44,087 bases of DNA, taken from contig NIVC01004498.1 in the NCBI GenBank assembly GCA_002269645.1, positions 1 to 44,087 of the forward strand, given 5' to 3'. A program made the position numbers and the translations under genes. Below, one piece after another: positions 6,208-44,087 of this stretch. The notes below the pieces were generated by a model. That model was not told the origin of the DNA. It ran no database searches and was given only the letters and a program-made list of their open reading frames with translations. The first letter of the stretch is position 1, and each line of letters begins with the position of its first letter. This DNA is from Macrostomum lignano (Eukaryota).

Positions 6208-6352
6208 CAGAGCAGTCGCTGAAAATGCAGTCATGTAAACTAATAGTACTCGTAACTGATATTAAGCTAGGTAAACTTCAGAAGTAAAAAAAATATTAGA
6301 TCAGAAGACAAAAAAAACAAATTGAAAGTTTCATACAGGTATTAATACGAGC

Positions 6353-7016: not shown

Positions 7017-7021
7017 TAGAG

Positions 7022-9310: not shown

Positions 9311-9394
9311 CTTTTCAATGTGAAACGTTATGCAGGAAACTATCTTGAAAACCAACTTCTTTTAGCTGTCCAAGAACTCCTAGTAAACATAGCG

Positions 9395-12317: not shown

Positions 12318-12884
12318 CGGGACAGCGGCGAGTAAGCCGCTGAAAGTTGGTCAACACAATTTTGTGCCAGAGAACCGCAACTGTGCCTGCATGCAGTGAC
12401 AGCCAGTGGTAACATGTGCAGTACCACAGGGTCTATCTATGCAGTTCATGCAACGTATAACGTGTGCTACAAAAACACACAGGCCGTTCTGTGGGAATCG
12501 GAACTTGCAAGTATTTGGTTTTACGAGTGTCTGTACTCTGTAGATAAAGATATCTAGATAAAACAAAGCCAGCGGAATGAGTGCCCCGCACCGAAGCTAC
12601 AGTGCTTGGCATAATCGAAATGACACACGCATTCAAGAGAATCGAGGCAAGTTGCAAGTATTGAATATTAGTCAAGTTTTCTGATATCTTTAACGTTTCA
12701 ACCTTAGTAGGCAGTTGGAGGAACTGACACGTGAAATGTATTAGCTTTTATTGAAATCATAAAATTGCAGTTACTATTTCAAAGCCAAAGATCAATACAT
12801 ATTAAATAACGGTTTTCGAAAGAAACTCTGAGCGTAACAAAGTTTATCTTAGTCACCACGAGAATTGTTAGTATCTTAGAGACT

Positions 12885-15213: not shown

Positions 15214-17962
15214 TCAGACGCCCATATCCGGCTGCGGTATGCACAAATTGTAGTGCACATCGGATTTAAAAAACGAGGCGGATTTCCAACCGCACCAGCC
15301 GTCTTTGCTGAGCTGCTTGGCGTCCGTCTCGGAGCCGGTGTAGTGCGGATCCAGCACTAGCCAGCGCACCTCGCCGCTGGCCTCGTTCAGACTGCAGCCA
15401 AGCAGAGTGTGGGCGTACTGGCCGCCGCCAATCATCACCGGGCAGCCGATGGTTTCGAAATGATGCAACAGCAGACGGGCCTGGCATTGTGTTGCAGCAT
15501 GAGATGAAGAGGGCAGTGAGCTGCTTCTTGTATAGTGGCTGTGCTAATCTGTCTGGCTAACTGCTCCCTAATCTGGCTATCTGCTCCATAATCTGTCTGG
15601 CTATCTGCTCCCTAATCTGGCTATCTGCTCCCTTATCTGTCTGGCTATCTGCTCCCTAATCTGGCTATCTGCTCCCTAATCTGGCTATCTGCTCCCTAAT
15701 CTGGCTATCTGCTCCCTTATCTGTCTGGCTATCTGCTGCCTAATCTGGCTATCTGCTCCCTAATCTGGCTATCTGCTCCCTTATTTGTCTGGCTATCTGC
15801 TCCCTAATCTGGCTATCTGCTCCCTAATCTGGCTATCTGCTCCATAATCTGTCTGGCTATCTGCTCCCTAATCTGGCTATCTGCTCCCTTATCTGTCTGG
15901 CTATCTGCTCCATAATCTGTCTGGCTATCTGCTCCCTAATCTGGCTATCTGCTCCATAATCTGTCTGGCTATCTACTCCATAATCTGTCTGGCTATCTGC
16001 TCCCTAATCTGTCTGGCTATCTGCTCCATAATCTGTCTGGCTATCTGCTCCCTAATCTGTCTGGCTATCTGCTCCCTAATCTGTCTGGCTATCTGCTCCA
16101 TAATCTGTCTGGCTATCTGCTCCATAATCTGTCTGGCTATCTACTCCATAATCTGTCTGGCTATCTACTCCCTAATCTGTCTGGCTATCTGCTTCCTAAT
16201 CTGTCTGGCTATCTGCTCCCTAATCTGGCTATCTGCTCCCTAATCTGGCTTTGTTTTCTAATCTGGCTATCTGCTCCCTAATCTGGCTACCTACTCTAAT
16301 CTGGATATCTGCTCCCTAATCTGGCTATCTACTCCCCAATCTGGTCCCATTTTCAAATTCGAAAGATCAGGAAGAAGCTCATGAAAGACCTCACCTGTTC
16401 AGGCAGGTCAACACCCCGAGACACGTGCACCAGACGGGCGGCAACTCCGGTTAAACTTTTCAACGCGTAGGACAGTTCCACAGCGCCAAGCCACTGCCTA
16501 GATCCGATCAATGACTTCGGCTTGTCGCCCAGATCAACCAAGGCTCGTTGGATTGCTTCGTGTTTAGGCACGGGAGCGTCTATAACACCGCGACGGCGCA
16601 ACCAAGACACGATGGTTTGCAGAGATCTGTGGAGAGGATTATTTTTCCCGTCGGAAAAATGGAGTATCGAAAATATGAATTGTCGGAGTTATGAATTTCT
16701 GAGGATATAAAGAGTCGGAGATGTGAAGTGTCGGAGATCAGAAGTGTCGGAGATCTGAATTGTCGGAGATCAGAAGTGTCGGAGATCTGAATTGTCGGAG
16801 ATCAGAAGTGTCGGAGATCTGAATTGTCGGAGATCAGAAGTGTCTGAGATCTGAATTGTCGGAGATCAGAAGTGTCGGAGATCTGAAGTCGGAGATCGGA
16901 GTCGAAGACATGAAGTTGGAGACAAGAAGTCGGAGATATGAAGTGTCGCAGATATGAAATTGGAGATGTGAGTTGTCGGAGACATGAAGTCGGAGATAGT
17001 CCATTCAAATTCAACAAGACCAACCTGTAGGCGCAGCCCCAGCCGGAGTCGTGGAAGCCGCAGCTGCCATAGTGATAATAAGCATAATCTCCTTGCACTA
17101 GCCGGGTGACCCAAGGCGCTGTATCCGGCTGCGGCTTGGCCTTCAAATGCGGATTAATCACTAGCCTACCAGACTCATCTTCATCAGCTCCATTTCCAGC
17201 ATCACTAGTAGACAGCAGCTGGTCTGCAGCGAACTTCAGTCGCATTGCTGGCCAGAACACTGGTCGAGTTTTCGGCACGCCAAGCTGCTCGTGCCAGCCG
17301 TGACGCAGCTGACGCAACTCGTCTGTGTCTGCGCCAATGGGATAAAACACCCGAATCAGGCGGGGCCGGCCGCCAACTAATGGTTCGGTTAATCGATAAT
17401 AATTAGTATCTACAGGCCGGCGCCACTTGGCAACAGTTAGGCCTAGCTGACGGACATAATCCACCAGACCAGCGTCTAATCTTTGCCAGACTTCATCGTC
17501 CTCGAAATCGCCGCCAATCAACAATGGACAAAGATAATTGATTTTTATGCCAACGCTAACGCAGCTCGATCTATTAGTACCGCTACTAGATACCGTAGCA
17601 ACCGTTGCTATGGGAACAGTACAATCAACATCGATTGTACCGTGACTCCAACGGCAATACAATTCAGTTGGCGAGTCTACAGATGCCGAATTGGAAGAAT
17701 TAGCGGCGAGCAGTTTAGCTAAAGAAGCTCCATCGGATACTAACATCGATGCTCGAGCGGAGACCAATCTTCGCCTGTCATTTTCGAATCTTTCTACAAA
17801 CGATTCCGGCAGCGCGGCCCAGCTAGACGCGTCAGCGGTCAGCCAGCAGGTGACGCGAATGTACACTAGACGGCGATGTTTCGCGTCGCTGACGCCGCCT
17901 TCAAATGACACTTCACCTCCGGTTGGGAGGTCGTCGTAGAGATCCACAGCTTGGTCCGACAT
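15214..17962 (-). CDS. UFSP2: Ufm1-specific cysteine protease 2 (3 exons: 17962-17025, 16626-16395, 15480-15214; 478 aa)
   Basis: YYHY...DSGWGCAYRSLQTIVSW (catalytic Cys), PVMIGGG, DPHYTG (Asp/His) and GWCGWK..F..YNLC. GT-AG introns join in frame; total 1437 nt. Confidence 0.93.
15545..16345. repeat. 20/24-bp intronic minisatellite
   Basis: CTAATCTGGCTATCTGCTCC and CTAATCTGTCTGGCTATCTGCTCC variants interspersed. Confidence 0.95.
16680..17000. repeat. 16-bp intronic minisatellite with a 32-bp dimeric higher-order unit
   Basis: GTCGGAGATCAGAAGT alternates with GTCGGAGATCTGAATT. Confidence 0.9.
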
Positions 17963-18064
17963 GCAAGATTAATTGACTGCTTGTTGCAAAACTCTTTGTA
18001 TCACGAAAGGCTTAGAATTATAAAAATTACTGGGGTAGATACTCACAACTTCAGGATTTGAGTA

Positions 18065-19291: not shown

Positions 19292-20589
19292 TCAATGCAA
19301 ATTAACCAACGGTGACCGCAGATTGCCAAGACTGTCTTCCAGCTCTTTCCAGGTCTTCGGCGGCAGGGCGGCCTCTAGGTTGCCCTGTTCGATGGGGCCA
19401 ACAACCATGGGGTAGTTGTAGACCAGAACCTGGTACTCTTCGTCAAGCTGATCGAAGGAGCGCTTGCCTTCGGGCAGCTTGTGGTAGGCCTCGTAGCAGT
19501 CGGTGATGCGCTTGCGCAGGTCCTGGAAGTACTCGTCGTACGACACTAGACGCATGTGGTTGCCGCAGTAGCACCTGATGGTGTGGGTGAGCCAGAGAAG
19601 TGGCACGATTGAAAATGTAGATTGGTGTTAAGAGTTCACTGAAGTAGCAAGGATTTCCTGGCTGAACTTCGAGATTGCCTTATTAAGGATCTCCTTAAAA
19701 GAATTTGCGAGGATCCCCATAGAATGCGCGAGGATTCCCTAACGAAATGCGCCAGGATTCCCTAACGAAATGCGCCAGGATTCCCTAACAAAATGCGCCA
19801 GGATTCCCTAACGAAATGCGCGAGGACTCCCTAACGAAATGTGCGAGCATTCCCTAACGAAATGCGCGAGGATTCCCTAACGAAATGCGCGAGGACTCCC
19901 TAACGAAATGTGCGAGCATTCCCTAACGAAATGCGCGAGGATTCCCTAACGAAATGCGCGAGGATTCCCTAACGAAATGTGCGAGGATTCCCTAACGAAA
20001 TGCGCGAGGATTCCCTAACGAAATGCGCGAGGATTCCCTAACGAAATGCGCGAGGATTCCTCCTCCCCATAGAATGCGCGAGGATTCCCTCAATCCTTAC
20101 CCCATAACTAAAAAAACTAGACAGTGTGAATTGGATTTAAAAAAATCGATAATACCTTTGATTAACATCCTTATGCAGAAAGGTGTAGGAAGTGTAAGTC
20201 TCCTGGCACGGGCAGCCAACCTGACGATAGTGACTGTGGCTGGGCACGAGATGCGGCCTCTCCTTAGTATTGGGGAAGAATCGGTACAGTTTAGTCTCAT
20301 AGAACTGGTCGTTGCCAGCCATCTCGGCCAGCTTTTCAAGTCTAGACCGACCGACAGCGTAACCAAGAGCGTCCGGTAGGCCATAGTCGCCAAACTGTTT
20401 GCCCTTGTGCATGTCAAGGTATTCCATGTCTTTCTCTAGGAAATTCTCTTTAGTAGTGTTTTCAACCACTTGGTGACCGTGACCGCCGCTCAGGCTGCGA
20501 ACGGCACCTCCGAGTGACTGCAGGCTGGCGCGGCCGGTCAGGAAGGCGCCGGTTGCGCGGCCAGACAAAGCCAGTACGAAGCGAGACAT
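19292..20589 (-). CDS. COX5B: Cytochrome c oxidase subunit 5B-like with a C-terminal extension (2 exons: 20589-20156, 19574-19292; 238 aa)
   Basis: Arg/Ser/Ala/Leu-rich presequence-like N-terminus, then TKERPHLVPS..RQVGCPC. The phase-2 splice gives FLHKDVNQ-R-CYCGNHMRLV, completing the four Zn-ligand Cys of COX5B. Confidence 0.85.
19720..20090. repeat. 23-bp intronic minisatellite
   Basis: Unit GGATTCCCTAACGAAATGCGCGA. Confidence 0.95.
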
Positions 20590-20711
20590 GATTTTTTTAT
20601 TGTTGCTGTTTGAGAGGCTATCGATACGGTCGTTATTAGGGCGCTTAGGACTTGCGCATCAATTTTGAGTATGCTTAAGCATTTTTAAAGGTGTTTTGTG
20701 TAGACGGATTC

Positions 20712-23294: not shown

Positions 23295-26200
23295 TCAGCC
23301 AGTGTGCATCACTCTCAACAGGGCCAGAGACACGTCCGGCAGCCGTTGCCTTGGCAACAGGTCGCTAACAGTCAGCTGCAACATGGTAGGCGGTTGACGA
23401 CGCAGCAGCCGCACCAGCAAGCGGACAGGCCGGCGACACCGGCTGCTCTCCAGGTGGTAGCGCAGCACCTCGGACAGGTAGGACCCGTCGCCGCCACCTC
23501 CGCTATTTTCATCCCAGCAGCGTCGATAAGCCACAGCGTGATTGGCACTGGCTACGCTATCAACAAACCTATTTGGGAATCCTAGCAGGCGGCAGATCGT
23601 GTAGAAGCCTCGACAGGACAGACTAGCTGATTGAGTGCCATCCTGAAGCAGGACGAAGGCTTCCGCAAGCGGTGGCTGCGCCGTTAAAGATGACGGGTGG
23701 AACTGGAAAATATGGAACAGAAGATTTTATCATTTCTGTCTTTGACTTGCTACTGAACAGTAGGAATAAAATAATTTTTGCACAAAAATTTAAATTTTCG
23801 AATTTGCGAGAAATTTGCATTACAATGCGCGGATATACTACTAATTACGCTTACTAAATTAAGTAGAATATGAGGTTCTATTTACTTATTTAGTGATTTT
23901 GAGTGTCATATACCCCTAAAGATTTTTAGTAAGTGGTTTACCGATATGTATCGAAAAAGCCATAGAATCCATCGCCTCACCTGAAATCGACAGACCGCGG
24001 ACAGAAAGCAGTCCAACTGAAATACTCGACCTTCGTCAAACCAGTTAGCCAAACCGGACTCAACAGCTGATGTCAAATTGAATTCAATTAAAGCTCCGAT
24101 GCTGTCAAAGTATTCACCGCTATGAAGGTTGTCAGCAACGGCTGCTGTTTGACGCGTTGGTCGACCATTGGCCGATCGGGTCACCTAGTAAAAGTGGCGG
24201 TTAATCGCTTTTATACATTGCATGCGCAACTAGCTACTCTCATCAGCAGCATGGTAACGTTTCCACCTCGAAACCAAAAATGATTCCAAATTCGCGGCTC
24301 TTTTTACAATTCTGCGACTCACGTGATGCGCTCGTGACTGATGACAATAATAATAATTAATAATTGATTACACCTGCCCCAATTGGGCTAGATGTGCAAC
24401 CAACAGCTCAGCCGCAGCTATTGCGCGGCGCATCTGAAGGCTGCGTACGGCTGTTCAGTCCAAGGAGGGGGGGGGGTCGCTACACACACAGCCTCAATTA
24501 CCTCAGCTAATGCTGTCACCCATTTTACAGCTGAGTGAACTGAAGCAACGCAAGGTGTCTTGCTCAAGGACACAAATTGTTCCGAGTAGGATCGGGATCG
24601 AAGCCCCCGACCTTCAAGTCGTAAGTCCGACGCTCTAACCACTAGGCTACAGCCCCGTGTGACTTAACAGTCGCTTCTGTCACATTGCAGTTGTTTTAGT
24701 CGTTAAAAAGTCACAAGAGTCGCTAGAGTCACCAGTGAGTTGCTTGCAATGACTCTTTTGCAATTTTAGCGGTCACGGTTAACGTTTTCAATGGTCGAGG
24801 ACAACGGGCGTGGTGCTGGTGTGAATTGCACCAATTGGGGCTGAGAGGAACTTTACCATGCTTCTGATTGTATATACTGGTAGGTATGTAGTAGTGACAC
24901 CAACCGACAACAGATGAATGGTAGGATTGATATCGGAGCAGACGCAGAGCAACTCCGCAGATTTTTTAGCATTCGCAGCCCCATTTTCAGCGTCATTGAA
25001 CTGGCGCCTGCTGACATTCAACAGTAGGACATCTTCGGCGTGGAAATTCGAACTAGCCAAATGCTGAATCATCTCTAAACGTCTAATATTCGATAGCGGA
25101 GCGCAGAATTGCACTCTAGCCGCTTCTTCGTCGGCTATCGGATCACCAATTAGAAGCCAAGCGTTGCCATGGCAACCAGATCTATCGTTGCCGAAGTCCA
25201 ATAGTCGTCCGCGTAGAGCAAACAAGCGTAGATGCCCGGATACCCGAGCGCGACTGGACGTCAGCCAATCAGATTGGCGCAATTGAACACACTCTACGCT
25301 GATTGGTCGCCGCTTTAAACTAATTAATAAAGGAGTTGCCGATGTCAGACAGTCAGTTTCGCTGGTTGCTAAGGAACTAGCTGCCAGATGTTGATCGGTA
25401 GAAATCTCGTCAGAGACAATTCTATATGTACCAGATGGCAGCAGCAGTTCGCGCAGCACTGAAGCTGTGTAAAAACGCAAACGAATAGATAAGGTAAGAG
25501 AAAATTTCAATGGAAATATATTGGCCACTGGGCTTCGTTAGGATTAAAGAGGCTTAGGAGGTCTTAATTCTGAGGGATCTAGAGTTCTAGACAGTTCCCA
25601 TATATAGCGATCTCTAGAGTCAACAGACAATCCTCATATAGTGATCTGGAGTCTACAGACAATCCTCATAGTGATCTATAGTCTACAGACAATCCTCATA
25701 GTGATCTATAGTCTACAGACAATCCTCATAGTGATCTATAGTCTACAGACAATCCTCATAAAGTGATCAATAGTCTACAGACAATCCTCATAGTGATCTA
25801 TAGTCTACAGACAATCCTCATAGTGATCTATAGTCTACAGACAATCCTCATAAAGTGATCAATAGTCTACAGACAATCCTCATAGTGATCTATAGTCTAC
25901 AGACAATCCTCATATAGTGATCTAGAGTCTACAGACAATCCTCATATAGTGATCTAGAGTCTACAGACAATCTTTATATAGTGATCTAGAGTCTACAGAC
26001 AATCCTCATATAGTGATCTAGAGTCTACAGACAATCCTCATATAGTGATCTAGAGTCTACAGACAATCCTCATATAGTGATCTAGAGTCTACAGACAATC
26101 CTCATATAGTGATCTAGAGTCTACAGACAATCCTCATATAGTGATCTAGAGTCTACAGACAATCCTCATATAGTGATCTAGAGTCTACAGACAATCCTCA

Positions 26201-31259: not shown

Positions 31260-31972
31260 TGTGCATAGGTTGTTTATGGCCCAAGATATTGCAAGAATAC
31301 GCCAAGCAGATTTAGCAAGTGCAGCACAATAAAAAATCATCTATGCAGCAAACAAAAATCACCATGAATCTTAACAAGATGCCTGCACCAAGCAGATCTG
31401 CAAGGTGTTTAGCAGGTGGGGCTTGAATGACATCCTAAACTGCCTGGTTGCTGAGGATGAAAGCTGGCTCTACCTGGATGGCAAGGGCAGCAAAGCAGAC
31501 AATTGCTGCTGGCTAGGAGCTGGGGACTCTAGGGCAACTGTGACCAGAAAGTCCATCTTGGACTAGAAGACCATGCTGCTAGTAGCCTTCATGCCAAATG
31601 AACAAGTCTCCATCCGCACAACTCCATTGAACTTTGTCTGGCACAGTGGCGACCTCTGGCACACTCTCCAGTCAAATCCAATTTACCTAGACGAGGTTTT
31701 GTGGTAGATGGAAACCATATGGCTTCACACCTGAAGGCAGTTTCTAAATTTCTGCTTTATGGCAAGTGAATATGCTCTGACAGAGTCCCTACAGCTTGGA
31801 CTTCAACTTTTCCTGTTCCTGTTCAAGATTCCTGTTCAAATGGCTGAAAGCTGACTTTTCCAAGAAGAGTTTTGCAACCTACAAAGAGGTCAAACAGGCT
31901 GCATTGCACTGGTTATGGCAGTTGGAGGAAAAACATCTGTAGGCTGAGGTGGACAAGCTGTATGTGGTATAT
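31260..31972 (+). mobile_element. Second decayed mariner-like transposase remnant, ending at the LTR element insertion
   Basis: LVAEDESWLY (IVTGDETW-like) at 31444-31473, KTMLLVAF, SPYSLD and EVKQAALHWL. Confidence 0.7.
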
Positions 31973-32836
31973 TGTAGAGTGTTCTACCTCCCGTTAAAGG
32001 AGGAAAAAGGAAGATAATCGTATAATACTACTATAAGTAAGTAAGTACACGCATGTGCGCCTAAGCTTTGAATGAATCACGCTACCAGAAAAAGATGTTA
32101 CCAGAATAATACGCCATGAGCCATTTTCCCCTTTTAGCGCAACACGTGAATTGTCATGATACTATTTTGGATCAAAAACTTGTCTATAAATACAAGCGAT
32201 CTGAAGCGGTACCGGAGCCATTCTCCCCACGGAAGAGGAGCGCTCCGAAGAGGAAGCCTTAGGAGGACTTCCTGATCTACCAAGTCAATCGAGACTCGGT
32301 CGAGTTGTTGCGGTAAGCCTTCCTTATTTGCGCCCGTTGTGTTAGAGACGTCTCGCTCAAGTCTATTGAGACTTGAGTCTAATTGAGTCTGTTGAGACTC
32401 TTGAGTCTGTTTAGACTCCATTGGTTGCAGTCTCCAGAAGGACTGCCCCTGATAGATCTTAGAGGACTATCAGTGGTTTCCGGAGCTATACCTAGAGTGC
32501 ATAGAGGCACTGCTAGAAGAAGGAGGCTTAATTTAGACCGCAGTTTGGCGCAGGGTACCCATTGTTGCTACGAGGCCTCTGATTGGTCCTGACGGAAGAT
32601 ACCGGCCGGAAGAACTTATCAGAAGTACAAGAGGAACCAGGACCAGAGCAACTGAAGAATCAAGGCGCCTGATCTACGAGATCTACTGACAAGTTCCTAG
32701 CGAGAACTACTCAAGAAATTCAAATCCGGATTAAAGGTAATTGAATACCTTCGTTTGACTTACTGGGTTGCCTAGCTGTTGAGCTAGAAGTGATTGTTCC
32801 TTGATTATCGAAAGTCGGGTAATAAGGAACACATCA
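31973..32836 (+). repeat. 5' LTR (864 bp)
   Basis: TGTAGAGTG...CACATCA, directly repeated at 41718-42580. Confidence 0.97.
32185..32192 (+). promoter_or_regulatory. Candidate LTR TATA box
   Basis: TATAAATA about 210 nt into the LTR, followed by an ATG-free leader. Confidence 0.5.
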
Positions 32837-32838
32837 AT

Positions 32839-32856
32839 TGGTGATCTCGCCCTCTC
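32839..32856 (+). other. Primer binding site (possibly tRNA-Trp-like, imperfect)
   Basis: TGGTGATCTCGCCC two nt after the LTR end; TGG is complementary to the tRNA CCA. Confidence 0.6.
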
Positions 32857-33552
32857 GGCACTACTCAAACCTTGAGCAATAGCCTGGCCAAGCTATTGTA
32901 AAGTGACGACAGAGCGACTTCATTAATTTTGCGCGCACGTGTTAGAGTTAACACTTTTTAAGTCCGTTACGTTTTGAAACTCGAGTAAAATTTGGTGTAC
33001 AGGTTTGAGCACCTGTCAAATTTGAGTACAGTTTGAGCACGCGTGTTAAAATTTTGTTTTGACGAGCTCGAGCAAGTGTGAGTTTAAAACAAAACCGAAA
33101 TTAACTTCGTCGGTACACTGAAAACAAACCAAAAATAAAAAGAATCGTCGACGCAAAACAAACAAAAAATAACTGAAACATTTTGCCGGCACAAAAACTA
33201 AAACAAAACCGAAATTAATTGAAACTTCGTGGAGAGCAGAGTTAATTGACAAAAGAGAGAGAGTCAAAGAAGAGAAGAAAGACTTTGCAAAGCAAGAAGA
33301 CAAGTCCACTTCAACTTGAAGATACACTTTGCGGGACGCCGCATAAGTGCGAAATCAGCAAGCGAACAGAACAAGTTCATTTGAGGACAACCAGTGGCAG
33401 CAAGCCACACCGCATCCGAGGCCAGCGAATAACAAATCGACACCACAAGGCAATTCGTTACAGTCGAGGTTTATTCCGAGGCAAACACCACACTGGACGA
33501 TCCGTTACAAATCGATCCAGATCTTGAACTACCGTTCTACCCTATCAACAAC

Positions 33553-36183
33553 ATGGCGCGGCGCAATCCAACGGTACACAGAGACATCAAAGAAACGGTC
33601 GGTACTTTCTCGATGGAGAAAGATTTTAACACATTTGTCGACCATTTTGACCTGGTATGTAGGGAATACAACCTACAAAATCCAGAGAAGGCACAGCTGC
33701 TGCCACCTCTTCTCCAAGGTACTGCGCGAGAAATTTACGGCAAGCTGGATGCGGCAACACAGCAAAATTATCCAGCACTAATCATTCAACTGCGCGCGCA
33801 TTTCAACCGTTGCGGCACAAACAGATCAGTGCTGCTGCACAAGTTGCATAACAGAAGGATGCAAGCAACAGAATCCTTCCTCGCCTTTGTGGACGATATC
33901 CGCCAGATAATTAAGGCACTGCATCAGCCACCGCTGCAAGCTGCGGACCAACCACCACTGGGAGCGGCAGAATTGGCCGCCAGAGAAAGACAACGATTGA
34001 TGGATCGTGAACAAAACCTCATCCTGCACGTAATAAACAACGCACAGCCGTCACTTCGGGATAGACTTTTGCGTGAAAATATCGAAACCGAAGAAGACCT
34101 TTTGCGTTGCGGAATGCAATGGGAAGCCAGTGCCCCATTAATGACGACAGGCAACAATGAAGTGCAGAAACTGACGCAGCAACTAAACAAGTTAATGCAG
34201 CACCAGACAGCTGCTATCGCCGAACAAAAAAGACGAAATGAACAAGCCTCAGCCAGATGTTACTACTGCGGACAAGAAGGACATTATCAGATTAATTGTC
34301 CTCATTGGTCAACAAGATACGACAAGCCGCGACAGATATTCAACAATCAGAAGCCGCAGAAACCATGGCAGCAATATCAAAATCGCCAACAACAAGGCAT
34401 AAGACGCTTCGGAAATGATAGACGCTTCGGAAATAATGACCGCTCCGGAAATGATGGCCGCTTCGGAAACGAAGGCCGCTTCAGAAGTAATGGCTACAGG
34501 CCACGCAACGTCAGATACACACAAAGACAGCCGACGCAAGCAATGCCACGATACGCGAATGCCATCACGTACACACCGGAAAATGAACAGCAAGAACAGC
34601 AAGTGTTCACAATTGACGACTTGGAAATGGACTTCACAGTCCCGGAACTTGACATCAGCTTGATCGAAAAGAAGACGACGCACGAGGACAACACTGACAA
34701 CACAGAAGAGACGAATGAAACCGAAATGATCAAATTAAAAGAGACCACCGGAGACAGCAGAGAAAACAGGAAGAAAGTAAATCACAAGACAAGGGAGGAG
34801 GCGGAGAGCGACATCGGCAACGAAGAAAAGATGAAAACCGGCGAAGAAAACAACTATGAATCGACAACAGTGGATGACGACAAAACGAGCATGAAAGACA
34901 AAGAAATGAAAGAAGAAGAAGAATGTAGAAGTTACGGCAACGACCACGACTGCGAGGTGCGTGATGACACGAACGACTACCAAGCCGAAAGAGGAATGCA
35001 GGAAGAACCGAGAGCGGAGAATCTAAGTTCCGACAGCGATCAAGGCTACGAAATACAATGGAAAGATGAAGAAATGGAAAAAGAACAGGTGAAAGAAAAG
35101 CCGAGTTCCGACAGCGACGAATGCTACGAGATCCGATACAAACGAAATGGTGAAGCCTATATTCAAACGGTCGACTACAAGACAGAGAAAAGATACCAAA
35201 CGCAATGGAGTGAAACAACGGAAACATCGGAAGAAGCTGCAGACGAAGATAATGAAATAACCAAAAAGCAAAGCGAATCAGAAGCCTTCCGCCTGGATCA
35301 GCCAATGGAACAACCGAAAGAATATGATGCGGACATGGAAGATAACGAATGGCGATCGCAGCCAATGCCAGCAAGGACAACGGCAAAATCCAAGAAGTGG
35401 AAAAACTGGCTATTCTGGATCATCGTGATACTACTGATAGCAGTAGTCGCCAAAGCAACGGCAACGGAAAAGCCAATTCCAATGATTTGTCCAACGGATG
35501 CGCATATCCAACCGATGATCTACAAGATACCAACCGACATCAAATGCAGTTACTTCAAGACAAACCAGACAAAACCAAAGAAGATTACACTCGATCTCTA
35601 CAAGGCTAACATCAAGAAGCATCGACAACACGGGATAGTATGCTTCAGAGACAAGCACCTGGTGGAAAAAGTTTGGCGCGGACAATGGAACCGGATCCGA
35701 TTTAAACAACATGAGCTACATGTGTCGCACGCGGAATGCCTACAATGGAATCAAACACTATTTTCAAAGGATGGTGAACTGGAACCAGATGAGAAGGTCG
35801 GCAACGCACAGCTGTTCAGAACAAAGAATTCAGCCAACGGTCGATATATTCACTTCTTCGGAAAATGGAAAGAATATATGGCACGCAACAGCTACTTGAT
35901 CAGAAATATTCCATTCTACTACAATCCGTACGAGAAAATGGAATCGTTACAGCTGCAACTAAGCGAATGTCGATACAGTGAAGGATGGTGTCCAACGCCG
36001 ATTCTACGGAAGGAAGAACTACACAGTCTACCACTGAGTCCAACATATCATCAAGACTATCGATGGCAGATTGAGCACAGAGCACAATCACACTATGAGG
36101 AACCGTACAAATCACGACAATATTTCTTCGCATGGAAAGTAGAGCCGGAAATTGACTGCAAGCTTCAAAAGTATCACAAGTGA
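33553..36183 (+). CDS. gag: Gag (capsid-like, CCHC knuckle) + acidic spacer + internal signal peptide + N-terminal half of Env
   Basis: Ty3-type Gag, CYYCGQEGHYQINC at 34258-34299, basic-hydrophobic-AxA segment KSKKWKNWLFWIIVILLIAVVAKATA at about 35386-35463, then a Cys-rich ectodomain. Confidence 0.9.
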   Translation: MARRNPTVHRDIKETVGTFSMEKDFNTFVDHFDLVCREYNLQNPEKAQLLPPLLQGTAREIYGKLDAATQQNYPALIIQLRAHFNRCGTNRSVLLHKLHNRRMQATESFLAFVDDIRQIIKALHQPPLQAADQPPLGAAELAARERQRLMDREQNLILHVINNAQPSLRDRLLRENIETEEDLLRCGMQWEASAPLMTTGNNEVQKLTQQLNKLMQHQTAAIAEQKRRNEQASARCYYCGQEGHYQINCPHWSTRYDKPRQIFNNQKPQKPWQQYQNRQQQGIRRFGNDRRFGNNDRSGNDGRFGNEGRFRSNGYRPRNVRYTQRQPTQAMPRYANAITYTPENEQQEQQVFTIDDLEMDFTVPELDISLIEKKTTHEDNTDNTEETNETEMIKLKETTGDSRENRKKVNHKTREEAESDIGNEEKMKTGEENNYESTTVDDDKTSMKDKEMKEEEECRSYGNDHDCEVRDDTNDYQAERGMQEEPRAENLSSDSDQGYEIQWKDEEMEKEQVKEKPSSDSDECYEIRYKRNGEAYIQTVDYKTEKRYQTQWSETTETSEEAADEDNEITKKQSESEAFRLDQPMEQPKEYDADMEDNEWRSQPMPARTTAKSKKWKNWLFWIIVILLIAVVAKATATEKPIPMICPTDAHIQPMIYKIPTDIKCSYFKTNQTKPKKITLDLYKANIKKHRQHGIVCFRDKHLVEKVWRGQWNRIRFKQHELHVSHAECLQWNQTLFSKDGELEPDEKVGNAQLFRTKNSANGRYIHFFGKWKEYMARNSYLIRNIPFYYNPYEKMESLQLQLSECRYSEGWCPTPILRKEELHSLPLSPTYHQDYRWQIEHRAQSHYEEPYKSRQYFFAWKVEPEIDCKLQKYHK

Positions 36184-36416
36184 AGGAGGACTACTGTCGA
36201 ATACGTTTTTGGCAAAGCAGGAGACTTGGCCTTGACGTTTCAAAAGAAGCCGGTTGAACAGGAACTCAAATGCAAGGATACGGACAAGACGCTATTCATC
36301 TCGGAGCAAGAAATACCAGTCTACGTGAAGGATGGTGACAAACAAACCTTCTGGCAATCATAAACGGAACATATCAGCAACAAGAGAGACAACGACGCGA
36401 CATAGAATGTCCACGA
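36184..36416 (+). pseudogene. env: Env middle segment bridging the two ORFs (after the in-frame TGA; frameshift near 36335)
   Basis: Frame 1 continues RRTTVEYVFGKAGDLALTF...C...LFISEQEIPVYV. Frame 3 is open from 36339 (QTNLLAIINGTYQQQERQRRDIECPRL) into the 36417 ORF. Confidence 0.75.
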
Positions 36417-39400
36417 TTGGTGTCAAACCGACTGCTGTCAGCAAAGATCACGGCGCTGGATCACAACCTGCATAACCAGCTTAACCACTTACATCGGTCA
36501 CTGGTCCAGCTAACTTGCAAAATGCACGCAATCAACTTAAATTATGCCAGACAAAACTACTATGTCAACCCTACGATGACTTTTCGTAAAATCACCGGAA
36601 TGACGAACGTTTTGGCAGTTCCAATATACGAGCATCTGTTGATATACAAGTGCACGCCGATACAGCACTTTAACATCTTGCCGTCAAACACGTCAACAAC
36701 CTGCTACGATAAGCCAAGGATTGAAGCGTTCTACGAAGGAAAACGAATTCAGGGATTCTTGGACACGGTACACAACATCATCGTTGGCACCGCAATACCG
36801 AGACCTTGCACCACGGCAGTAAACTACTATCAACTGGACAATGCACTACACGTCATCAAAACAACTGGAACGACAGCAAACGTCACAGAACCGGAAGTAA
36901 TCGTCGACGAAAACTACGACATGGAGGATTTGAAAATCCGATTCAACAGAACGAAGTATACGCCATTCGCCGATATCCAACTTGACGAGATAACACCAGG
37001 ATGGACGATCAACGACTTCTTGCAAGCGTTCATCACCCAACGCAAGATGATTCACCAGCTGTTCACAAGAAAGGACAAAGGAACCGGGACAGGAAGATTT
37101 CCCGTCCTTGTTTCAATGGACAGCGCCATCAAATCATTTTGGACAAATAGCTTCTGGGAGCTGCTCAATGGAAGAGGCAGTCTCTATCAAGGATTCATCT
37201 TCTACGGTGCTTGCATTGTGTGGATTGTCACGGCAATCTTCATCATTTCATCGATCGTACGGTGCTTCAGTCAAACTTGTCCAAGAGCTAAGAAGACAGT
37301 GAATGCCATAATGCAAAGAACGACAACGGAAAGCGACAACAGTTTAGAACTAACAGAAACTGCACATTGTGAGGTTCAAGGGCAACCGACACTAGCAACG
37401 CGGCTATATCCATCGATTCCGACAACACCAACGGCACCAAGGATACAACCACCCAACTATCAAGCAGAACAGCACGAGCCAAAATGGCCGGAAAACTACG
37501 TCTGTACGCTACACGCCGAGATTGGCAAAGCAATGGCTCAGGTCATTGTCAACAACTTGCCATGTCGAGCACTACTGGATTCAGGCAGCTCGATCACAGT
37601 CATCTCGCAACAATTATGCAACAAGCTACGACTCGCGGTACGACCAGCAGCAATCGCAGTTGCAGGAGCAGGAGGACATTCACTCAACATCCTAGGAAAA
37701 GCAGATATCGACTTGAAAATTGCTAATAAACAGCTGACGGTCCCGACGTACATCATCGACAGACTACCAAACCAAGACGTCATCGTTGGAATCGACACGT
37801 TCAAGCAGCTTCAACTACCATTGACCTTCGACTTCAACAAGCAAACGTTTAGGATCGACACGGTGGAGCAACCGCTGATCAACCAGATTCGAGTACTACC
37901 GAAAGTAACTCTGCAGCAAGATGTCATTATCCAGCCTGAAAGCGCATGCTGGGTCAGAGCGAAAACGACCAGCGCGGCAGATGAAGCAATGATATTTGAT
38001 CCACACAGGAGAGTCACGGCAAAACATCAAATCATGATGCCTACGGCACTAGTGCTGGTTGCAAAGGATAAGCAACTGCCAGTACAAATCTTCAACCCGA
38101 ACACAGAAACGGTTCATCTACGACAAGGAATGTGCATCGGTCATCTCAACACCCAAGCATCGGTTATGCTGATTGAACAAGCGACTCCACGACTAACAGA
38201 GGAAGAATTTCAAAAGAAGATCAATTTGGATGACAGCCCGATTACGGAACAGCAAAAGAGGAAAGTTCGACAGCTGTTGTGGAAGTACAACGAAGCCTTC
38301 TGCCATCATGATTACGACATCGGACGAGCCAAGGACATCAAACAGGAAATCAAACTTCTGCCGCACACGGAACCAATTCAGTGCAAGCCGTACCCGATCG
38401 CCAAGCATCTGCAACAACACTTTGACGAAATCATCGATAAAATGCTAAAGCACGGCATCATCAGCAAAGCTATTTCGGCTTACTCCTCACCGTGCCTACT
38501 GGTACAGAAGAAGGAGACAAACGAAAGACGACTCGTATGCGACTTCAGACTGTTGAACAAGTACATACCGACGGATCAGCAAAGCCTACCGAAGATCTCC
38601 GAACTACTAGCAAAGCTCAACACGGCAAAATTGTTCACGGTGTTCGACCTACGTCATGGATTTTGGCAAATTGAAATCGAGAAAGAGTCACGACAGTACA
38701 CGGCTTTCAAAACCTACAATGGACAAGTATACGAGTACAATCGATCGCCGATGGGACTTAGCAACAGCCCAGCAACGATGAGTCGACTAACAGCATACAT
38801 GCTAGCAGGATGCACGAACCTGCTGCACTATGTCGACGACATTTTAGCCTACGGAGAGGATTTCGAGCGACTCTACGAAGCTACGGAGAAGGCCCTAGCG
38901 CTCATTCAACGCCAAGGTCTGAAGCTACAACCAACTAAATGCAAATTCTTCCGAGACAACGTGCGTTACCTGGGACATCAGGTGACAGCCAAAGGAATCT
39001 CACCGGACCCAGACAACGTGGAAAAGGTGAAGAAGTTTCCTACGCCAACCAGTATAACGAAGGTCCAATCATTCCTTGGACTTGCGCAATACTTCAGGAA
39101 GTTCTTACCTAACTTCGCAAAGACAGCAAAGCCACTGTACGACCTGCTCAAGTTCGACAAATGGAAGCAAGACAACTGGACACAGAGACAACAGGAAAGT
39201 TTCGACGAAATCAAACGACAGCTGACATCAGACGCACTGCTACAGCATCCGGACTTCGACAAGCCCTTCATCATCGAGACAGACGCCTCAGGAACGGGAC
39301 TCGGAGCAGTCCTACTACAGGAAACCGAGGACAAGAAGGAACGACCTATTGCTTACGTCAGTCGAGCACTCAAACCAAATGAGACAAAGTGGTCAGCTAC

Positions 39401-41042
39401 GGAACGAGAGCTACTAGGAGTCTTGTTCGCCCTGCGACAGTTTCATTACTACATCTATGGTTCTCCAATACAGACGATAGTACGCACGGATCATGCACCA
39501 TTGACCTACGTCGTAACTACAAAAGGACAGACCAACAACCGACTCATCAGGATGACACTCAAGATCCAGGATTACAACTACAAACTCGTCTACAAACCAG
39601 GAATTACCAACAAAGCCGCGGACGCCCTGTCAAGAGCCTATGAAGTCAACGCCATTCATCCAATCCCTAACATCAAGGAGTTGGTGGATGAAACCGAGCG
39701 CGACAACTTCTACCAAGCGGTTAAAGACGACGACAAGAACATCAAACTCAGTCCCATGGAACGAAAATTCCTACGCAAGCAACGACAACACCTAACAATC
39801 AATAAGTCACGGCTCTACTGGATGAGCGACAATAAACCCAAGATCTACATACCATATTCGTTTCGGCAAGCAATTCTCAACGAGCTACACGACAACCCAC
39901 TCGCTGGACACCTGTCGGCAGCAAAGACCATCGCGAGAGTGGAACAATACTACTTTTGGCCAACTATGTACGGCGACATCAAGCAGTATTGCAACAACTG
40001 CCATTCATGTGCTGCATCAAAGACAGGACGACGACAGAAACCGCAGCTACAGTCCATTCCGAAGTCGACTACAATGGACTGTCTAAGCATCGACATCACC
40101 GGACCGCTACCACCGAGCTGTCTCCAGGGCATCGCCTACACCTACATTCTAACCGCCTTGGATATCTTCTCGAAGTTTGCTATCGCCATACCGATACCGG
40201 ACATCACAGCTCAGACAGTGGCAATGAGTTTCTTCAACGAAATCATTTGCAAGTACGGCACGCCGAAGAACCTCACATCGGACAACGGATCGCAGTTTAC
40301 ATCGCAACTGTTTCAGCAAGTCGTAAGGATTCTCAACATTACGCAGATCTACACATCGACCTACAATCCGAAGGCAAACATGGTTGAACGGTTTCACCGC
40401 AACCTGCACGAGATGATTACACATTTCGCGCACCAACAGCCGGAAGACTGGATCATCTACCTGCAATCTGTAACAATGGCCTACAACAGCGCTATTCATC
40501 GATCAACGGACAATACGCCATTCTTCCTAATGTTTGGACGAGACTTCCAACCGCCGAATCTGCTCGCACAGCAATTGCTACCATCGCAGTACGTGGAAGT
40601 ACCGACTTCCATTCAGAAATTCGTCACGCAACTACACCTCGCATGGAAGATCGCCAAGCACAACATTGACAACCAGGTGGCTCTGACCACCGGCAACGAC
40701 GCGAGATCGACAACCCTGACGGCCGGCGACATCGTCTACCTACACTACCCGCCACAGCAGACGCATAAACATGCACAGAAGTACAAAGGACCCTATCGAG
40801 TGGTCCAACTAACGTCACCAACAACGGCACGCCTGGCTAATGTACAAGATCCACATCAGCACCAGTTCTACGTACACATTCATCGACTAAAGAAGATCAA
40901 CACTGACACAGCGACGTTTCTACCGACATTAGACAACGCTGATCGCACGCGTTCAACGAACCGCCACATCGCGACGAAGCACGAGGAGACTCAAACGACA
41001 GATGTGAGCCAGCCACATGGCTACAACCTACGACCACGCTAG
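36417..41042 (+). CDS. pol: C-terminal Env (coiled coil, TM) fused to Pol (protease, RT, RNase H, integrase)
   Basis: TM FIFYGACIVWIVTAIFIISSIV at 37194-37259, LLDSGS at about 37572-37589, YVDD at 38829-38840, IETDASG, HDNPLAGH...CHSC, IDITGP/DNGS/VERFHR and GPY. Confidence 0.97.
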   Translation: MVSNRLLSAKITALDHNLHNQLNHLHRSLVQLTCKMHAINLNYARQNYYVNPTMTFRKITGMTNVLAVPIYEHLLIYKCTPIQHFNILPSNTSTTCYDKPRIEAFYEGKRIQGFLDTVHNIIVGTAIPRPCTTAVNYYQLDNALHVIKTTGTTANVTEPEVIVDENYDMEDLKIRFNRTKYTPFADIQLDEITPGWTINDFLQAFITQRKMIHQLFTRKDKGTGTGRFPVLVSMDSAIKSFWTNSFWELLNGRGSLYQGFIFYGACIVWIVTAIFIISSIVRCFSQTCPRAKKTVNAIMQRTTTESDNSLELTETAHCEVQGQPTLATRLYPSIPTTPTAPRIQPPNYQAEQHEPKWPENYVCTLHAEIGKAMAQVIVNNLPCRALLDSGSSITVISQQLCNKLRLAVRPAAIAVAGAGGHSLNILGKADIDLKIANKQLTVPTYIIDRLPNQDVIVGIDTFKQLQLPLTFDFNKQTFRIDTVEQPLINQIRVLPKVTLQQDVIIQPESACWVRAKTTSAADEAMIFDPHRRVTAKHQIMMPTALVLVAKDKQLPVQIFNPNTETVHLRQGMCIGHLNTQASVMLIEQATPRLTEEEFQKKINLDDSPITEQQKRKVRQLLWKYNEAFCHHDYDIGRAKDIKQEIKLLPHTEPIQCKPYPIAKHLQQHFDEIIDKMLKHGIISKAISAYSSPCLLVQKKETNERRLVCDFRLLNKYIPTDQQSLPKISELLAKLNTAKLFTVFDLRHGFWQIEIEKESRQYTAFKTYNGQVYEYNRSPMGLSNSPATMSRLTAYMLAGCTNLLHYVDDILAYGEDFERLYEATEKALALIQRQGLKLQPTKCKFFRDNVRYLGHQVTAKGISPDPDNVEKVKKFPTPTSITKVQSFLGLAQYFRKFLPNFAKTAKPLYDLLKFDKWKQDNWTQRQQESFDEIKRQLTSDALLQHPDFDKPFIIETDASGTGLGAVLLQETEDKKERPIAYVSRALKPNETKWSATERELLGVLFALRQFHYYIYGSPIQTIVRTDHAPLTYVVTTKGQTNNRLIRMTLKIQDYNYKLVYKPGITNKAADALSRAYEVNAIHPIPNIKELVDETERDNFYQAVKDDDKNIKLSPMERKFLRKQRQHLTINKSRLYWMSDNKPKIYIPYSFRQAILNELHDNPLAGHLSAAKTIARVEQYYFWPTMYGDIKQYCNNCHSCAASKTGRRQKPQLQSIPKSTTMDCLSIDITGPLPPSCLQGIAYTYILTALDIFSKFAIAIPIPDITAQTVAMSFFNEIICKYGTPKNLTSDNGSQFTSQLFQQVVRILNITQIYTSTYNPKANMVERFHRNLHEMITHFAHQQPEDWIIYLQSVTMAYNSAIHRSTDNTPFFLMFGRDFQPPNLLAQQLLPSQYVEVPTSIQKFVTQLHLAWKIAKHNIDNQVALTTGNDARSTTLTAGDIVYLHYPPQQTHKHAQKYKGPYRVVQLTSPTTARLANVQDPHQHQFYVHIHRLKKINTDTATFLPTLDNADRTRSTNRHIATKHEETQTTDVSQPHGYNLRPR

Positions 41043-41162
41043 AGTTTAGAGAACAACCCCGTGTAGTGACCGGGATAAAGAATAGCACTACAGCTTCGCA
41101 AGCTTGTCGTAAAAGGCGACTAATCCGAGCGACACAAAGACAGCGACAAATTGACGACAATT

Positions 41163-41537
41163 ATGGGCAACGCACTGTCAAAACAGGCGCCCCAGCCTCA
41201 GCAGCTATATGACTGCCCGATATGTTTAACTGATGACTTGGCTGTCAAGCCACCGACTATTTGCATCAACGAACATAAAGTTTGCGGACAATGTTTAAGC
41301 GATTCACATTATATTCAGCCATGGCAGAATTGTCCCCTCTGTAGAGATAGTTTGCGACAATGTGCCTATTGTTATTCTTGGCGCACGTTTCAATATTGTA
41401 ACCACCAACATTTTATTTGCATGCACTGTTTGAAGCAAACCGCTAGTAGGGGCGTTATAGGATGCCCCTTATGTAATAGTATGCCGCGAGACTGCACGTT
41501 TCGAAAGTGGTGTCGGATCAAACCTGATGCCACTTGA
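41163..41537 (+). CDS. Accessory tandem C3HC4 RING protein with a predicted N-myristoylation signal (124 aa)
   Basis: MGNALSK; RING1 CPIC..CINEHKVCGQC..CPLC; RING2 CAYC..CNHQHFICMHC..CPLC. Confidence 0.85.
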   Translation: MGNALSKQAPQPQQLYDCPICLTDDLAVKPPTICINEHKVCGQCLSDSHYIQPWQNCPLCRDSLRQCAYCYSWRTFQYCNHQHFICMHCLKQTASRGVIGCPLCNSMPRDCTFRKWCRIKPDAT

Positions 41538-41702
41538 TGTCTACGCGATATTCGAGTTTTGACCGCAATATGTACTGAAAAGTTTTTAGAGTTTTGACCA
41601 AACCCTCGCTTCACTAGACGCGCACAAAATCAATTGTTTATTTCCTATATTAACTGATCACCACAGAATTTTATTGTTAAAACTCGGGACGAGTTTTTTC
41701 GT

Positions 41703-41714
41703 AAAAAAGGGAGA
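41703..41714 (+). other. Polypurine tract
   Basis: AAAAAAGGGAGA three nt before the 3' LTR. Confidence 0.85.
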
Positions 41715-41717
41715 TTT

Positions 41718-42580
41718 TGTAGAGTGTTCTACCTCCCGTTAAAAAAGGAAAAAGAAGATAATCGTATAATACTACTATAAGTAAGTAAGTACACGCATGT
41801 GCGCCTAAGCTTTGAATGAATCACGCTACCAGAAAAAGATGTTACCAGAATAATACGCCATGAGCCATTTTCCCCTTTTAGCGCAACACGTGAATTGTCA
41901 TGATACTATTTTGGATCAAAAACTTGTCTATAAATACAAGCGATCTGAAGCGGTACCGGAGCCATTCTCCCCACGGAAGAGGAGCGCTCCGAAGAGGAAG
42001 CCTTAGGAGGACTTCCTGATCTACCAAGTCAATCGAGACTCGGTCGAGTTGTTGCGGTAAGCCTTCCTTATTTGCGCCCGTTGTGTTAGAGACGTCTCGC
42101 TCAAGTCTATTGAGACTTGAGTCTAATTGAGTCTGTTGAGACTCTTGAGTCTGTTTAGACTCCATTGGTTGCAGTCTCCAGAAGGACTGCCCCTGATAGA
42201 TCTTAGAGGACTATCAGTGGTTTCCGGAGCTATACCTAGAGTGCATAGAGGCACTGCTAGAAGAAGGAGGCTTAATTTAGACCGCAGTTTGGCGCAGGGT
42301 ACCCATTGTTGCTACGAGGCCTCTGATTGGTCCTGACGGAAGATACCGGCCGGAAGAACTTATCGGAAGTACAAGAGGAACCAGGACCAGAGCAACTGAA
42401 GAATCAAGGCGCCTGATCTACGAGATCTACTGACAAGTTCCTAGCGAGAACTACTCAAGAAATTCAAATCCGGATTAAAGGTAATTGAATACCTTCGTTT
42501 GACTTACTGGGTTGCCTAGCTGTTGAGCTAGAAGTGATTGTTCCTTGATTATCGAAAGTCGGGTAATAAGGAACACATCA
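41718..42580 (+). repeat. 3' LTR (863 bp)
   Basis: About 4 differences from the 5' LTR seen by eye. Confidence 0.97.
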
Positions 42581-42954
42581 ATATGCGCATATAAAGTATA
42601 TTTCATTTCACACACATTGGCCATAGACACTGCTTCTATTAACCCTGCGTTCTAAAGCTAATATAAGGAGAGCAAATATAAAGGAAATGAATGTTAACAT
42701 CGGCATGGCAAGAGCCCGCTACCAAGCTTGAGATTACTAACTATAATTCACCTAGACTTTGAGTTGGTAACGGAAGTTGGATGTAACACTGTATGAGCAC
42801 TGCCAAAGGGTGATTGATATTGGGGGATTCTATGTTGTTGAGTGGTATAGTTTTCTTCATTAGCGATTGCAAGTTTGTCTGCTTTCACATCAGTGACATT
42901 ACTTATGACACACGCGAAGTAATAGATATTCCCCTCAAATAGAAAATATTTTTA

Positions 42955-43290
42955 AGACAACAAGCACCCCCAATGAAAAGTAAGCAATTGCAGATAGCAA
43001 GCATCCCTTAATACTTGTAGCAAGCATCCATCCAGATAGCAAGCATCATCCCAGATAGCAAGCATCTGCAAATAGCAAGCATCCCCAAGATAGAAGCATC
43101 CACCCAGGTAGCAAGCATCCTGTAGATAATAAGAATCCCTAAATAACAAGCATCCTTAGATAGAAAGAATCCCATACATGTTAGCCAGTACCCCCTCTCT
43201 CAAATAGCAAGTACCCCATCTCTCAAATAGCAAGTACCCCCTTGAGAGCAAGCATCCCCCAGAAAGCAAGCATCCACCAGACAGCAAATA
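42955..43290. repeat. Degenerate AGATAGCAAGCATCC-type minisatellite
   Basis: Recurring TAGCAAGCATCC core at roughly 17-20 bp spacing. Confidence 0.8.
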
Positions 43291-44087
43291 GCTAGTGCAA
43301 ATGTTACCTCCACTAATGTGATAATTGCTTTCTCAGGTTGTGTAACAATCTACGTTTTAGCTAGCACAACAATCTCTTTTTGACAGTGCAATAATTAGTT
43401 TCTCAGCTAGTTAAATAATCATTTTCTCATTTAGTACAATAATCCTTTGCTAATCAAGTCCAAAATCAATGTCTCAGCTAGTGCAAAAGCCCTTTCTAAT
43501 TTAGTGCAACAATCCTTGGCTTATCAAGTGCAATAATCCTTGGTGTATCAAGTGCCATAATCTAGGTCTGCTTAATTAGTCTTTTAATAAAATCTTTCAA
43601 TAAAAAAATTATGCTAGGGCCTATTTTTATTTTTTACACTACTAAGATTTGACCTAGGTCACTGCATTAGCAGTCCAGCGTGTTTATATCTAGGTTAGCT
43701 CTTATTAAATTTATAAATTAATTTGTAGCACTTATAATTCCATACTAACACTAAGTCAATTGAGTAAAAGTCACAGAGGAGTTATGACATAATCAATTTC
43801 TTTAGGCAAGTTAGTACCAGTTTCTATTTTCTATTAAAGTTAGCAGTGTGAGTGTGGTTACACAATATAAATCAAGAATTGTACTATGCTTCCACACTGC
43901 ATTTTCAATACTGTGATACAGTTAGGGGTCCCAATTCTGAGATCCAGCTTTTTGTTAGTGATCGAGATCCTAGCATTAATAGTCTGGGATCCCAGTAAAC
44001 ATGGATTGGAATTTACACTTTGCAAAAGTGAATATTTTTTGTCTTGCAGTTAGCACTTAAATAGTTTTGAGAGGATTTTTGCATCCT

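Follow-up and report, generated by a model that had tools for sequence, protein, structure and literature searches.

How might a retrotransposon assemble an enveloped particle when its envelope glycoprotein (Env) is encoded in the middle of the polyprotein, between Gag and Pol? The question is raised by an element at positions 31973-42580 of a 44,087-nucleotide stretch of Macrostomum lignano DNA (GenBank assembly GCA_002269645.1, contig NIVC01004498.1, positions 1 to 44,087, forward strand), referred to here as the window. The element is a complete Ty3/gypsy long terminal repeat (LTR) retrotransposon, 10.6 kb long, with a predicted Gag-Env-Pol polyprotein and, in the presumed cytoplasmic tail of Env, a cluster of motifs resembling retroviral late domains. 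The explanation we favour, with a probability of roughly 0.55 on the sequence comparisons set out below, is that the precursor is tethered in a membrane, buds through endosomal sorting complex required for transport (ESCRT) factors recruited by the Env tail, and matures through protease cleavage.

A complete and recently active element

The features of a Ty3/gypsy element are all present: LTRs with TG...CA ends, a 4-bp duplication on both sides, a primer-binding site, a polypurine tract and, in Pfam scans, a pol order of protease (PR), reverse transcriptase (RT), RNase H (RH) and integrase (IN) with gypsy-type profiles and without a Pao peptidase (Table 1). The two LTRs align over 870 columns with four mismatches and one gap, and are 99.4% alike. 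A DNA search of the genome (G000) gave 169 candidates, of which 18, at 94-100% identity, were scored; the 18 copies analysed here are thus a lower bound. The LTR pairs of 16 of the 17 other copies differ by 0-5 substitutions, and the remaining copy had no 3' LTR in the stretch taken. Synonymous divergence (dS) along the element ranges from 0.03 to 0.8 between copies (L008 compared with L035 and L033), a spread between regions which indicates that the copies are mosaics of sub-families. We take the element to be, as its sequence indicates, a recently active Ty3/gypsy element of the GAG-ENV-POL type, with an envelope like herpesvirus glycoprotein B (gB), that has spread recently.

Mosaic copies are as expected from template switching between co-packaged genomes. 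One copy (L027, contig C2112 of G000) has an apparent 5-bp target-site duplication; most readable copies have 4 bp.

A single frame from Gag to integrase

The window copy is split within env. Its first open reading frame (ORF A, 33433-36183, with the ATG at 33553) contains a zf-CCHC match; ORF B (36339-41042) contains a weak match to PF24664, followed by aspartic protease, RT, RNase H and integrase. The original prediction had ascribed the split to two lesions. Comparison with an uninterrupted natural copy reveals neither a lone stop nor a lone frameshift but four single-base gaps, from which the TGA at 36181 arises.

Four of the 18 copies, including one that is 94% identical, carry an uninterrupted frame of 2,538 codons, and three others stay open from a point inside Gag as far as RT, by way of Env and PR. 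Three pairs of copies have common flanks, as judged by eye, so that the 18 copies represent roughly 15 independent insertions; one of these pairs accounts for two of the four intact copies. Against the uninterrupted natural copy we counted 67 frame-shifting indels at 54 codons, mostly single-base losses. The breaks are mostly private, stops caused by substitution occur in just three copies, and no frame change is family-wide. A programmed frameshift is rejected on the strength of the four intact frames and the lack of any family-wide frame change. The intact siblings of about 2,500 amino acids by which the original prediction could be checked therefore exist, and the claim that Env and Pol are continuous in one ORF holds and extends to Gag.

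The breaks in the window copy are probably assembly errors. A copy with the same 3' flank has none of the four gaps, and contigs from public sequencing runs (four runs from four studies) carry the uninterrupted form at the first and second gaps in 4/4 runs and at the third in 1/4, among the rows listed. Because these contigs pool all copies, assembly error is likely rather than proven.

A gB-type envelope in a two-pass precursor

A Kyte-Doolittle scan found exactly one strongly hydrophobic stretch in each ORF of the window copy. Between these two segments lie six N-glycosylation sequons and the furin motif. The N-terminal flank of segment 1 has five basic and no acidic residues, and the C-terminal flank of segment 2 three basic and none acidic. 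Hydropathy, flanking charge and sequon position together give good support for a coherent two-pass topology in which Gag would be cytosolic, Env luminal, and the tail and Pol cytosolic again. The membrane-threaded arrangement first proposed for this locus is in keeping with these data, and domain scans and hydropathy agree with the proposed order of Gag-CCHC, spacer, hydrophobic segment, Env, transmembrane segment, tail and PR-RT-RH-IN.

We examined the identity of the region between the segments by profile and by predicted fold. Single-sequence searches gave a match of the window to the PF24664 viral fusion glycoprotein family with an E value of 2.9e-5, under the curated cut-off, and no Pfam match for the N-terminal half of Env alone. 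The ectodomain of a natural copy, used as a query against 1.84 billion representatives, returned 51 matches. A 46-row profile, built from five G000 sequences and 41 of the shorter database matches, matched gammaherpesvirus gB with an E value of 8e-18, and all 52 solved-structure matches listed are gB or synonyms of it. An AlphaFold model computed from the 46-row alignment reached a mean predicted local distance difference test score (pLDDT) of 79 and a predicted template-modelling score of 0.55; from the single envelope sequence the pLDDT was only 32.5. Foldseek placed herpes gB top (E 9e-20, template-modelling score about 0.44) and, among predicted viral proteins, found rhabdo-like, nyamivirus and chuvirus-like glycoproteins (E about 1e-21 to 1e-16). 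The ratio of non-synonymous to synonymous divergence (dN/dS) between diverged copies is 0.05-0.10 in Env, indicating purifying selection, and 0.01-0.07 in Pol. By profile and modelled fold, then, the middle region is a class III, gB-type envelope. Young LTRs, purifying selection on env and mosaic copies are only indirect signs of infectivity.

These data bear on the simplest alternative, that gag, env and pol are separate or frameshift-joined ORFs or that the middle region is not an envelope. The split in the window copy and the sub-threshold single-sequence Pfam match would suit it, yet uninterrupted frames in 4/18 copies, breaks that are mostly private, and a gB match by both profile and fold leave it almost no chance of being correct.

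Related families and published systems

The same layout recurs in the genome. Among 63 scored candidates for PF24664 in G000 there were 30 matches, and five loci were fetched (L041-L045, on contigs C1189, C368, C2598, C103 and C2129). L041, which is 30% identical, encodes CCHC-env-PR-RT-RH-IN in a single 2,458-amino-acid frame, and L042 is an interrupted copy of L041. The frame stays open between Gag and protease in L043 and L044, and between Env and integrase in L045. The genome contains a minimum of four additional families of the Gag-Env-Pol type, at 23-67% identity, and the Gag region is 25-27% identical to those of L041, L043 and L044. Among 50 other env homologues, eight combine CCHC, env and protease motif in one predicted protein, which could be spliced gene models. 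From these comparisons the Gag-Env-Pol layout appears to be old and shared across families. Other RT relatives are at best 31-42% identical and mostly unnamed.

The original prediction knew of no characterised example of this order. Two are already published, the planarian Burro element (PMC6431247) and a set of GAG-ENV-POL elements (PMC13524379). The gene order is in print, and very probably the family too, so that the headline claim is not new. PMC6431247 (2019) presents Burro, whose env is fused in frame to gag on one side and to pol on the other, as the first example of this arrangement. PMC13524379 (eLife 2026) describes gB-type GAG-ENV-POL elements in Nematoda, Bryozoa and Platyhelminthes that are not monophyletic, with ectodomains flanked by two transmembrane domains and, for most of its elements, an unknown transmission mechanism. 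The window element has the gag-env-pol order between LTRs, and the class III ectodomain flanked by signal or transmembrane segments, of what that paper terms an HSV/gB-type (herpes simplex virus) GAG-ENV-POL errantivirus. Its supplement includes Mlig_errantivirus_2, with an HSV/gB-type env and an identical primer-binding 12-mer; LTR length is 863 nt compared with 864 nt in the window, LTR spacing 9,727 compared with 9,744, and copy number 16 compared with our 18 scored. Matched by these features rather than by sequence, our family is very probably Platyhelminthes_Rhabditophora_Mlig_errantivirus_2. In UniRef/nr, a protein with 98-100% identity to Env-Pol bears the name of a Macrostomum lignano retrovirus-related polyprotein. 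The main text of PMC13524379 does not mention a polyprotein, single ORF, in-frame arrangement, late domain, ESCRT, budding or RING.

Burro (GYPSM1) resembles the window element in having one polyprotein with env between gag and pol. Its env matches mononegavirus fusion glycoproteins and it has extra ubiquitination-related domains (PMC6431247). It differs in an ORF1 of 4,873-5,140 amino acids with MATH, BIR, BCL2, ankyrin and dUTPase domains and a length of more than 30 kb, whereas the window element, at about 2,500 amino acids and 10.6 kb, has RING ORFs after pol. With 2,498 amino acids and no MATH, BIR, BCL2 or ankyrin match in Pfam scans, the window element is not a Burro element. PMC13524379 also cites Sacco et al. 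2022 (doi 10.1099/jgv.0.001739) for, in paraphrase, nematode endogenous retroviruses with ENV before POL; these share that order with the window element, and the title of the cited work has their glycoprotein captured from an RNA virus. Their hosts are nematodes, unlike ours, and we did not assign the window element to them: the named proteins near-identical to it are from a flatworm. The nematode elements reportedly have a continuous gag-env-pro-pol ORF with an env resembling that of nyamiviruses. The top fold matches of the window envelope include nyamivirus G. Relatives of the window element carry the label of a flatworm used for transgenesis (PMC12801592); that paper does not mention env, envelope or glycoprotein in the text covered here.

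Some relatives depart from the window element in detail. L041 and L043 have three CCHC knuckles compared with one in the window. In P0050, which belongs to BEL/Pao, env comes at the end. P0002, a database protein of 3,074 amino acids, joins the unrelated domains glycosyl hydrolase 2 and RNase H to the Gag-Env-PR of the window family without a late-domain cluster, and is probably a chimeric gene model.

Late-domain-like motifs in the Env tail

In retroviral late domains, PTAP, LYPxI and PPxY are established recruiters of TSG101, ALIX and NEDD4-type ligases, respectively. In the window element LYPSI, PTAP and PPNY are packed into 19 residues of the roughly 90-residue tail between the second transmembrane segment (TM2) and the protease. 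PTAP and PPxY occur in 18/18 copies and LYP in 16, with MYP in the other two, and this includes a tail variant that is only 80% identical. Tails of the other families carry PSAP and IYPTI (L043), PTAP and IYPKI (L045), LYPKI (L041) or none of the motifs (L044).

We compared motif counts across 37 tails of at least 40 amino acids, drawn from 55 homologous proteins; the 18 omitted comprise four that were unanchored, 12 without a detectable TM2 region and two with tails shorter than 40 amino acids. P[TS]AP occurs in 9/37 tails (shuffle mean 0.40) and [LIVF]YPx[LIV] in 7/37 (shuffle mean 0.37), counts reached in 0/2000 shuffles. Without the seven G000-type rows, P[TS]AP is still found in 4/30 tails, compared with 0.27 expected (0/5000 shuffles). 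Permuted motifs occur 0-1 times, except for [TS]APP (six), which may overlap the real motif. In a quick, unfinished env tree of 47 of 54 rows (L008, L043 and P0005 were excluded by a length filter), motif-bearing tails fall on several branches.

Two comparisons concern sequence outside the Env tail. Only 26 of 119 RT relatives reached far enough upstream of the protease, and redundancy removal left 25 env-less ones; none of the motifs occurs in these 25 windows of 110 amino acids before the protease. They are thus not a generic feature of the Gag-Pol junction in that sample. A Fisher test of tails against these windows gave P = 0.0009 (12/37 tails), and P = 0.027 without the G000-type rows (6/30). 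PTAP, PPxY and [LIVF]YPx[LIV] are also absent from the first 600 amino acids, corresponding to Gag, of L008, L041, L043 and L044. We found no report of late-domain motifs in such Env tails in the open full-text literature, subscription papers being outside the search.

Several observations weigh against a budding role. PPxY is not enriched (3/37 tails, shuffle mean 0.95, count reached in 133/2000 shuffles); without the G000-type rows the LYP motif is marginal (2/30, 205/5000 shuffles); and all three motifs are missing from 24/37 homologous tails, that of L044 among them. The choice of patterns followed inspection of the query, and a broadened form of the LYP motif was used. L008 Gag contains one YPAL, which fits YPxL, inside its capsid region. 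The [VA]NAI motif past TM2, discussed below as a candidate protease site, is absent from four other families. Finally, the same motifs can instead send membrane proteins to lysosomes.

The last point underlies a rival account with the same polyprotein and topology, in which the tail motifs are degradation signals that route Env-tail-Pol to multivesicular bodies and lysosomes and so lower Env and Pol relative to Gag. Such turnover would relieve the problem of 1:1:1 synthesis: far less Pol than Gag is required for a capsid, and neither a frameshift nor a splice that could supply the surplus was observed. The enrichment data fit this account equally well, and host membrane proteins sorted by ESCRT use such motifs. 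Against it, P0042, P0046 and P0053 (perhaps truncated records) have the motifs in tails that no protease motif follows, and the pairing of PTAP with LYPxL is the retroviral late-domain arrangement. We consider this account unlikely. The roughly 1:1:1 stoichiometry of the original prediction would be a ratio of synthesis, and equal synthesis need not give equal amounts in particles, as with the selective turnover of Pol in Tf1.

Candidate protease sites flanking the membrane-bound part

The pattern [VA]NAI, picked post hoc, occurs three times in the polyprotein, after the nucleocapsid, after TM2 and before IN, compared with 0.06 expected. These are plausibly sites for the element protease, judging from their placement. 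Candidate sites on both sides of the membrane-bound part would also suit an early cut on the endoplasmic reticulum (ER), after which Gag and Pol form ordinary cytoplasmic particles and Env acts apart, for example in fusion of somatic with germ cells or in later envelopment of capsids, the linkage serving co-expression alone. That most homologous tails are without late-domain motifs agrees with such a scheme. It leaves unexplained the enrichment of motifs in the tails and their absence from env-less relatives, and we regard it as distinctly unlikely.

An accessory RING ORF

Downstream of the polyprotein lies a small ORF that starts with MGNALSK and matches zf-RING_2 with an E value of 0.002, below the Pfam cut-off. 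It is found in 12 of 17 scanned 3' stretches (11 with an MG start, one with MS), the other five starting too far downstream, and also in the main loci of L008 (497-1904, minus strand) and L010. Some copies have a longer RING form and a second RING ORF, in a 3' region of about 1,640 nt compared with about 585 nt. In G000 there are 145 RING ORF matches among 150 scored, several of them clustered on contigs C2121, C87, C1130 and C4009. Matches in the ESM Atlas to viral RING clusters (0.86-0.92) and arenavirus Z (0.87) are a lead only, recognition being just below threshold.

The 3' RING ORF needs some separate route to translation. This favours a scheme in which spliced or internally started RNAs give Gag-only, Env-only and RING-only products and stoichiometry is set at the RNA level, much as Cer1 makes a spliced CERV mRNA (PMC10309623). 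Against it, no joint is listed within 33000-41700 in the contigs of the four runs, a weak negative because rare forms are lost from contigs. We consider such a scheme very unlikely.

A proposed route of assembly

In the tethered-precursor explanation, segment 1 would act as an internal signal, with Gag staying in the cytosol while Env enters the ER lumen and is glycosylated; segment 2 would return the tail and Pol to the cytosol. This topological part we hold with confidence. Signal peptidase and furin would make the cuts on the luminal side. Gag and Pol would both be kept on the cytosolic face of the membrane patch occupied by Env, the tail motifs would recruit ESCRT, and the protease would then mature the particle, a sequence to which we give slightly less than an even chance. 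In it, the PTAP, LYPxI and PPxY motifs would engage TSG101, ALIX and NEDD4-type ligases, respectively, so that Env, rather than Gag, is proposed to drive ESCRT budding. Cleavage by the protease, both at the [VA]NAI motifs and at the enzyme's N terminus, would free Gag from its anchor, trim the Env tail and release the enzymes, and the mature particle would fuse with a neighbouring, probably germline, cell.

Retroviral late domains include PTAP and LYPxnL in human immunodeficiency virus p6 and PSAP, LYPxL and PPPY in murine leukaemia virus, and gammaretroviruses cleave an R peptide from the Env tail. In the window element, as in retroviruses, these short motifs lie shortly before the protease, and the Env tail offers the protease a possible cleavage site. 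It differs in where the motifs lie: retroviral late domains are in Gag, and retroviral Env is a separate spliced product. Tentatively, and with a good deal of doubt, we suggest that the retroviral division of labour is inverted here. The whole precursor would be a membrane protein, the Env tail would supply the late domains, a capsid would form only after cleavage in the released vesicle, and maturation would be linked to fusion through the cut in the Env tail. A myristoylated RING protein might serve as a matrix-like factor or ubiquitin ligase at the same membrane, like arenavirus Z. If the tail does drive budding, the element would exemplify a route to enveloped retroelement particles unlike that of retroviruses and Drosophila gypsy. 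The family is young and multi-copy, and it offers predictions at the level of residues, covering both membrane segments, the furin site, three candidate sites for the protease and the late-domain motifs of the tail.

Table 1. Features of the element in the window, in order of position
Feature	Position	Strand	Basis or detail
Left target-site duplication, 4 bp	31969..31972	+	Repeated at 42581-42584
5' LTR	31973..32836	+	TG...CA ends
Primer-binding site	32839..32850	+	2 nt past LTR; identical in 16/17 other copies (one row unreadable)
Gag	33553..34554	+	Putative capsid region; CCHC knuckle 34258-34299
First [VA]NAI motif, candidate protease site after nucleocapsid (NC)	34555..34566	+	Putative role
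Acidic spacer, 31% D+E	34561..35361	+	Composition; dN/dS about 0.4 over wider post-NC region
Hydrophobic segment 1, candidate internal signal or signal-anchor	35410..35466	+	Hydropathy 2.41 (Kyte-Doolittle)
Class III (gB-type) envelope ectodomain, predicted	35476..37190	+	Profile, fold, dN/dS
Disrupted stretch of window copy, four single-base gaps	36170..36360	+	Compared with uninterrupted natural copy
Furin consensus R-x-R-R	36387..36398	+	In 18/18 copies (two sequence variants) and L041, L043, L044, L045
Hydrophobic segment 2, predicted Env transmembrane anchor	37191..37247	+	Hydropathy 2.43; helix in predicted model
Second [VA]NAI motif, candidate protease site in Env tail	37299..37310	+	17 residues after TM2; also in divergent tail variant
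Late-domain-like cluster, Env tail	37404..37460	+	LYPSI 37404-37418, PTAP 37428-37439, PPNY 37449-37460
Aspartic protease	37533..37823	+	DSG at 37578; Pfam
Reverse transcriptase and RNase H	38505..39575	+	YVDD at 38829; Pfam
Third [VA]NAI motif and integrase (zinc finger, core, C-terminal part), stop codon	39645..41042	+	Motif at 39645; Pfam, motif scan
Accessory ORF, 124 amino acids	41163..41537	+	MGxxxS myristoylation-type start; two RING-like Cys/His clusters
Polypurine tract	41703..41714	+	Precedes 3' LTR
3' LTR	41718..42580	+	Aligned to 5' LTR

Other features of the window

Simple patterns found no heat-shock element in the 5' LTR, and Rfam gave no match anywhere in the window. Within Gag, past the CCHC knuckle, five copies of an 18-nt repeat (34405-34494) encode an RFGND-type stretch rich in arginine and glycine. 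Outside the element, tandem gene copies resembling M20 peptidases occupy 1360-12436 on the minus strand, where two ORFs (3569-4462 and 5452-6261) match Peptidase_M20 and M20_dimer in Pfam. Exons at 16802-17968 and 20137-20658, also on the minus strand, resemble UFSP2 (Peptidase_C78, UfSP2_N) and cytochrome c oxidase subunit Vb, respectively. Many minisatellite arrays with periods of 16-43 nt lie within 1-27000 and 43018-43562, and nested inverted repeats, located at roughly 8000-8800, 11100-11600 and 24670-24770, are possibly the remains of a DNA transposon.

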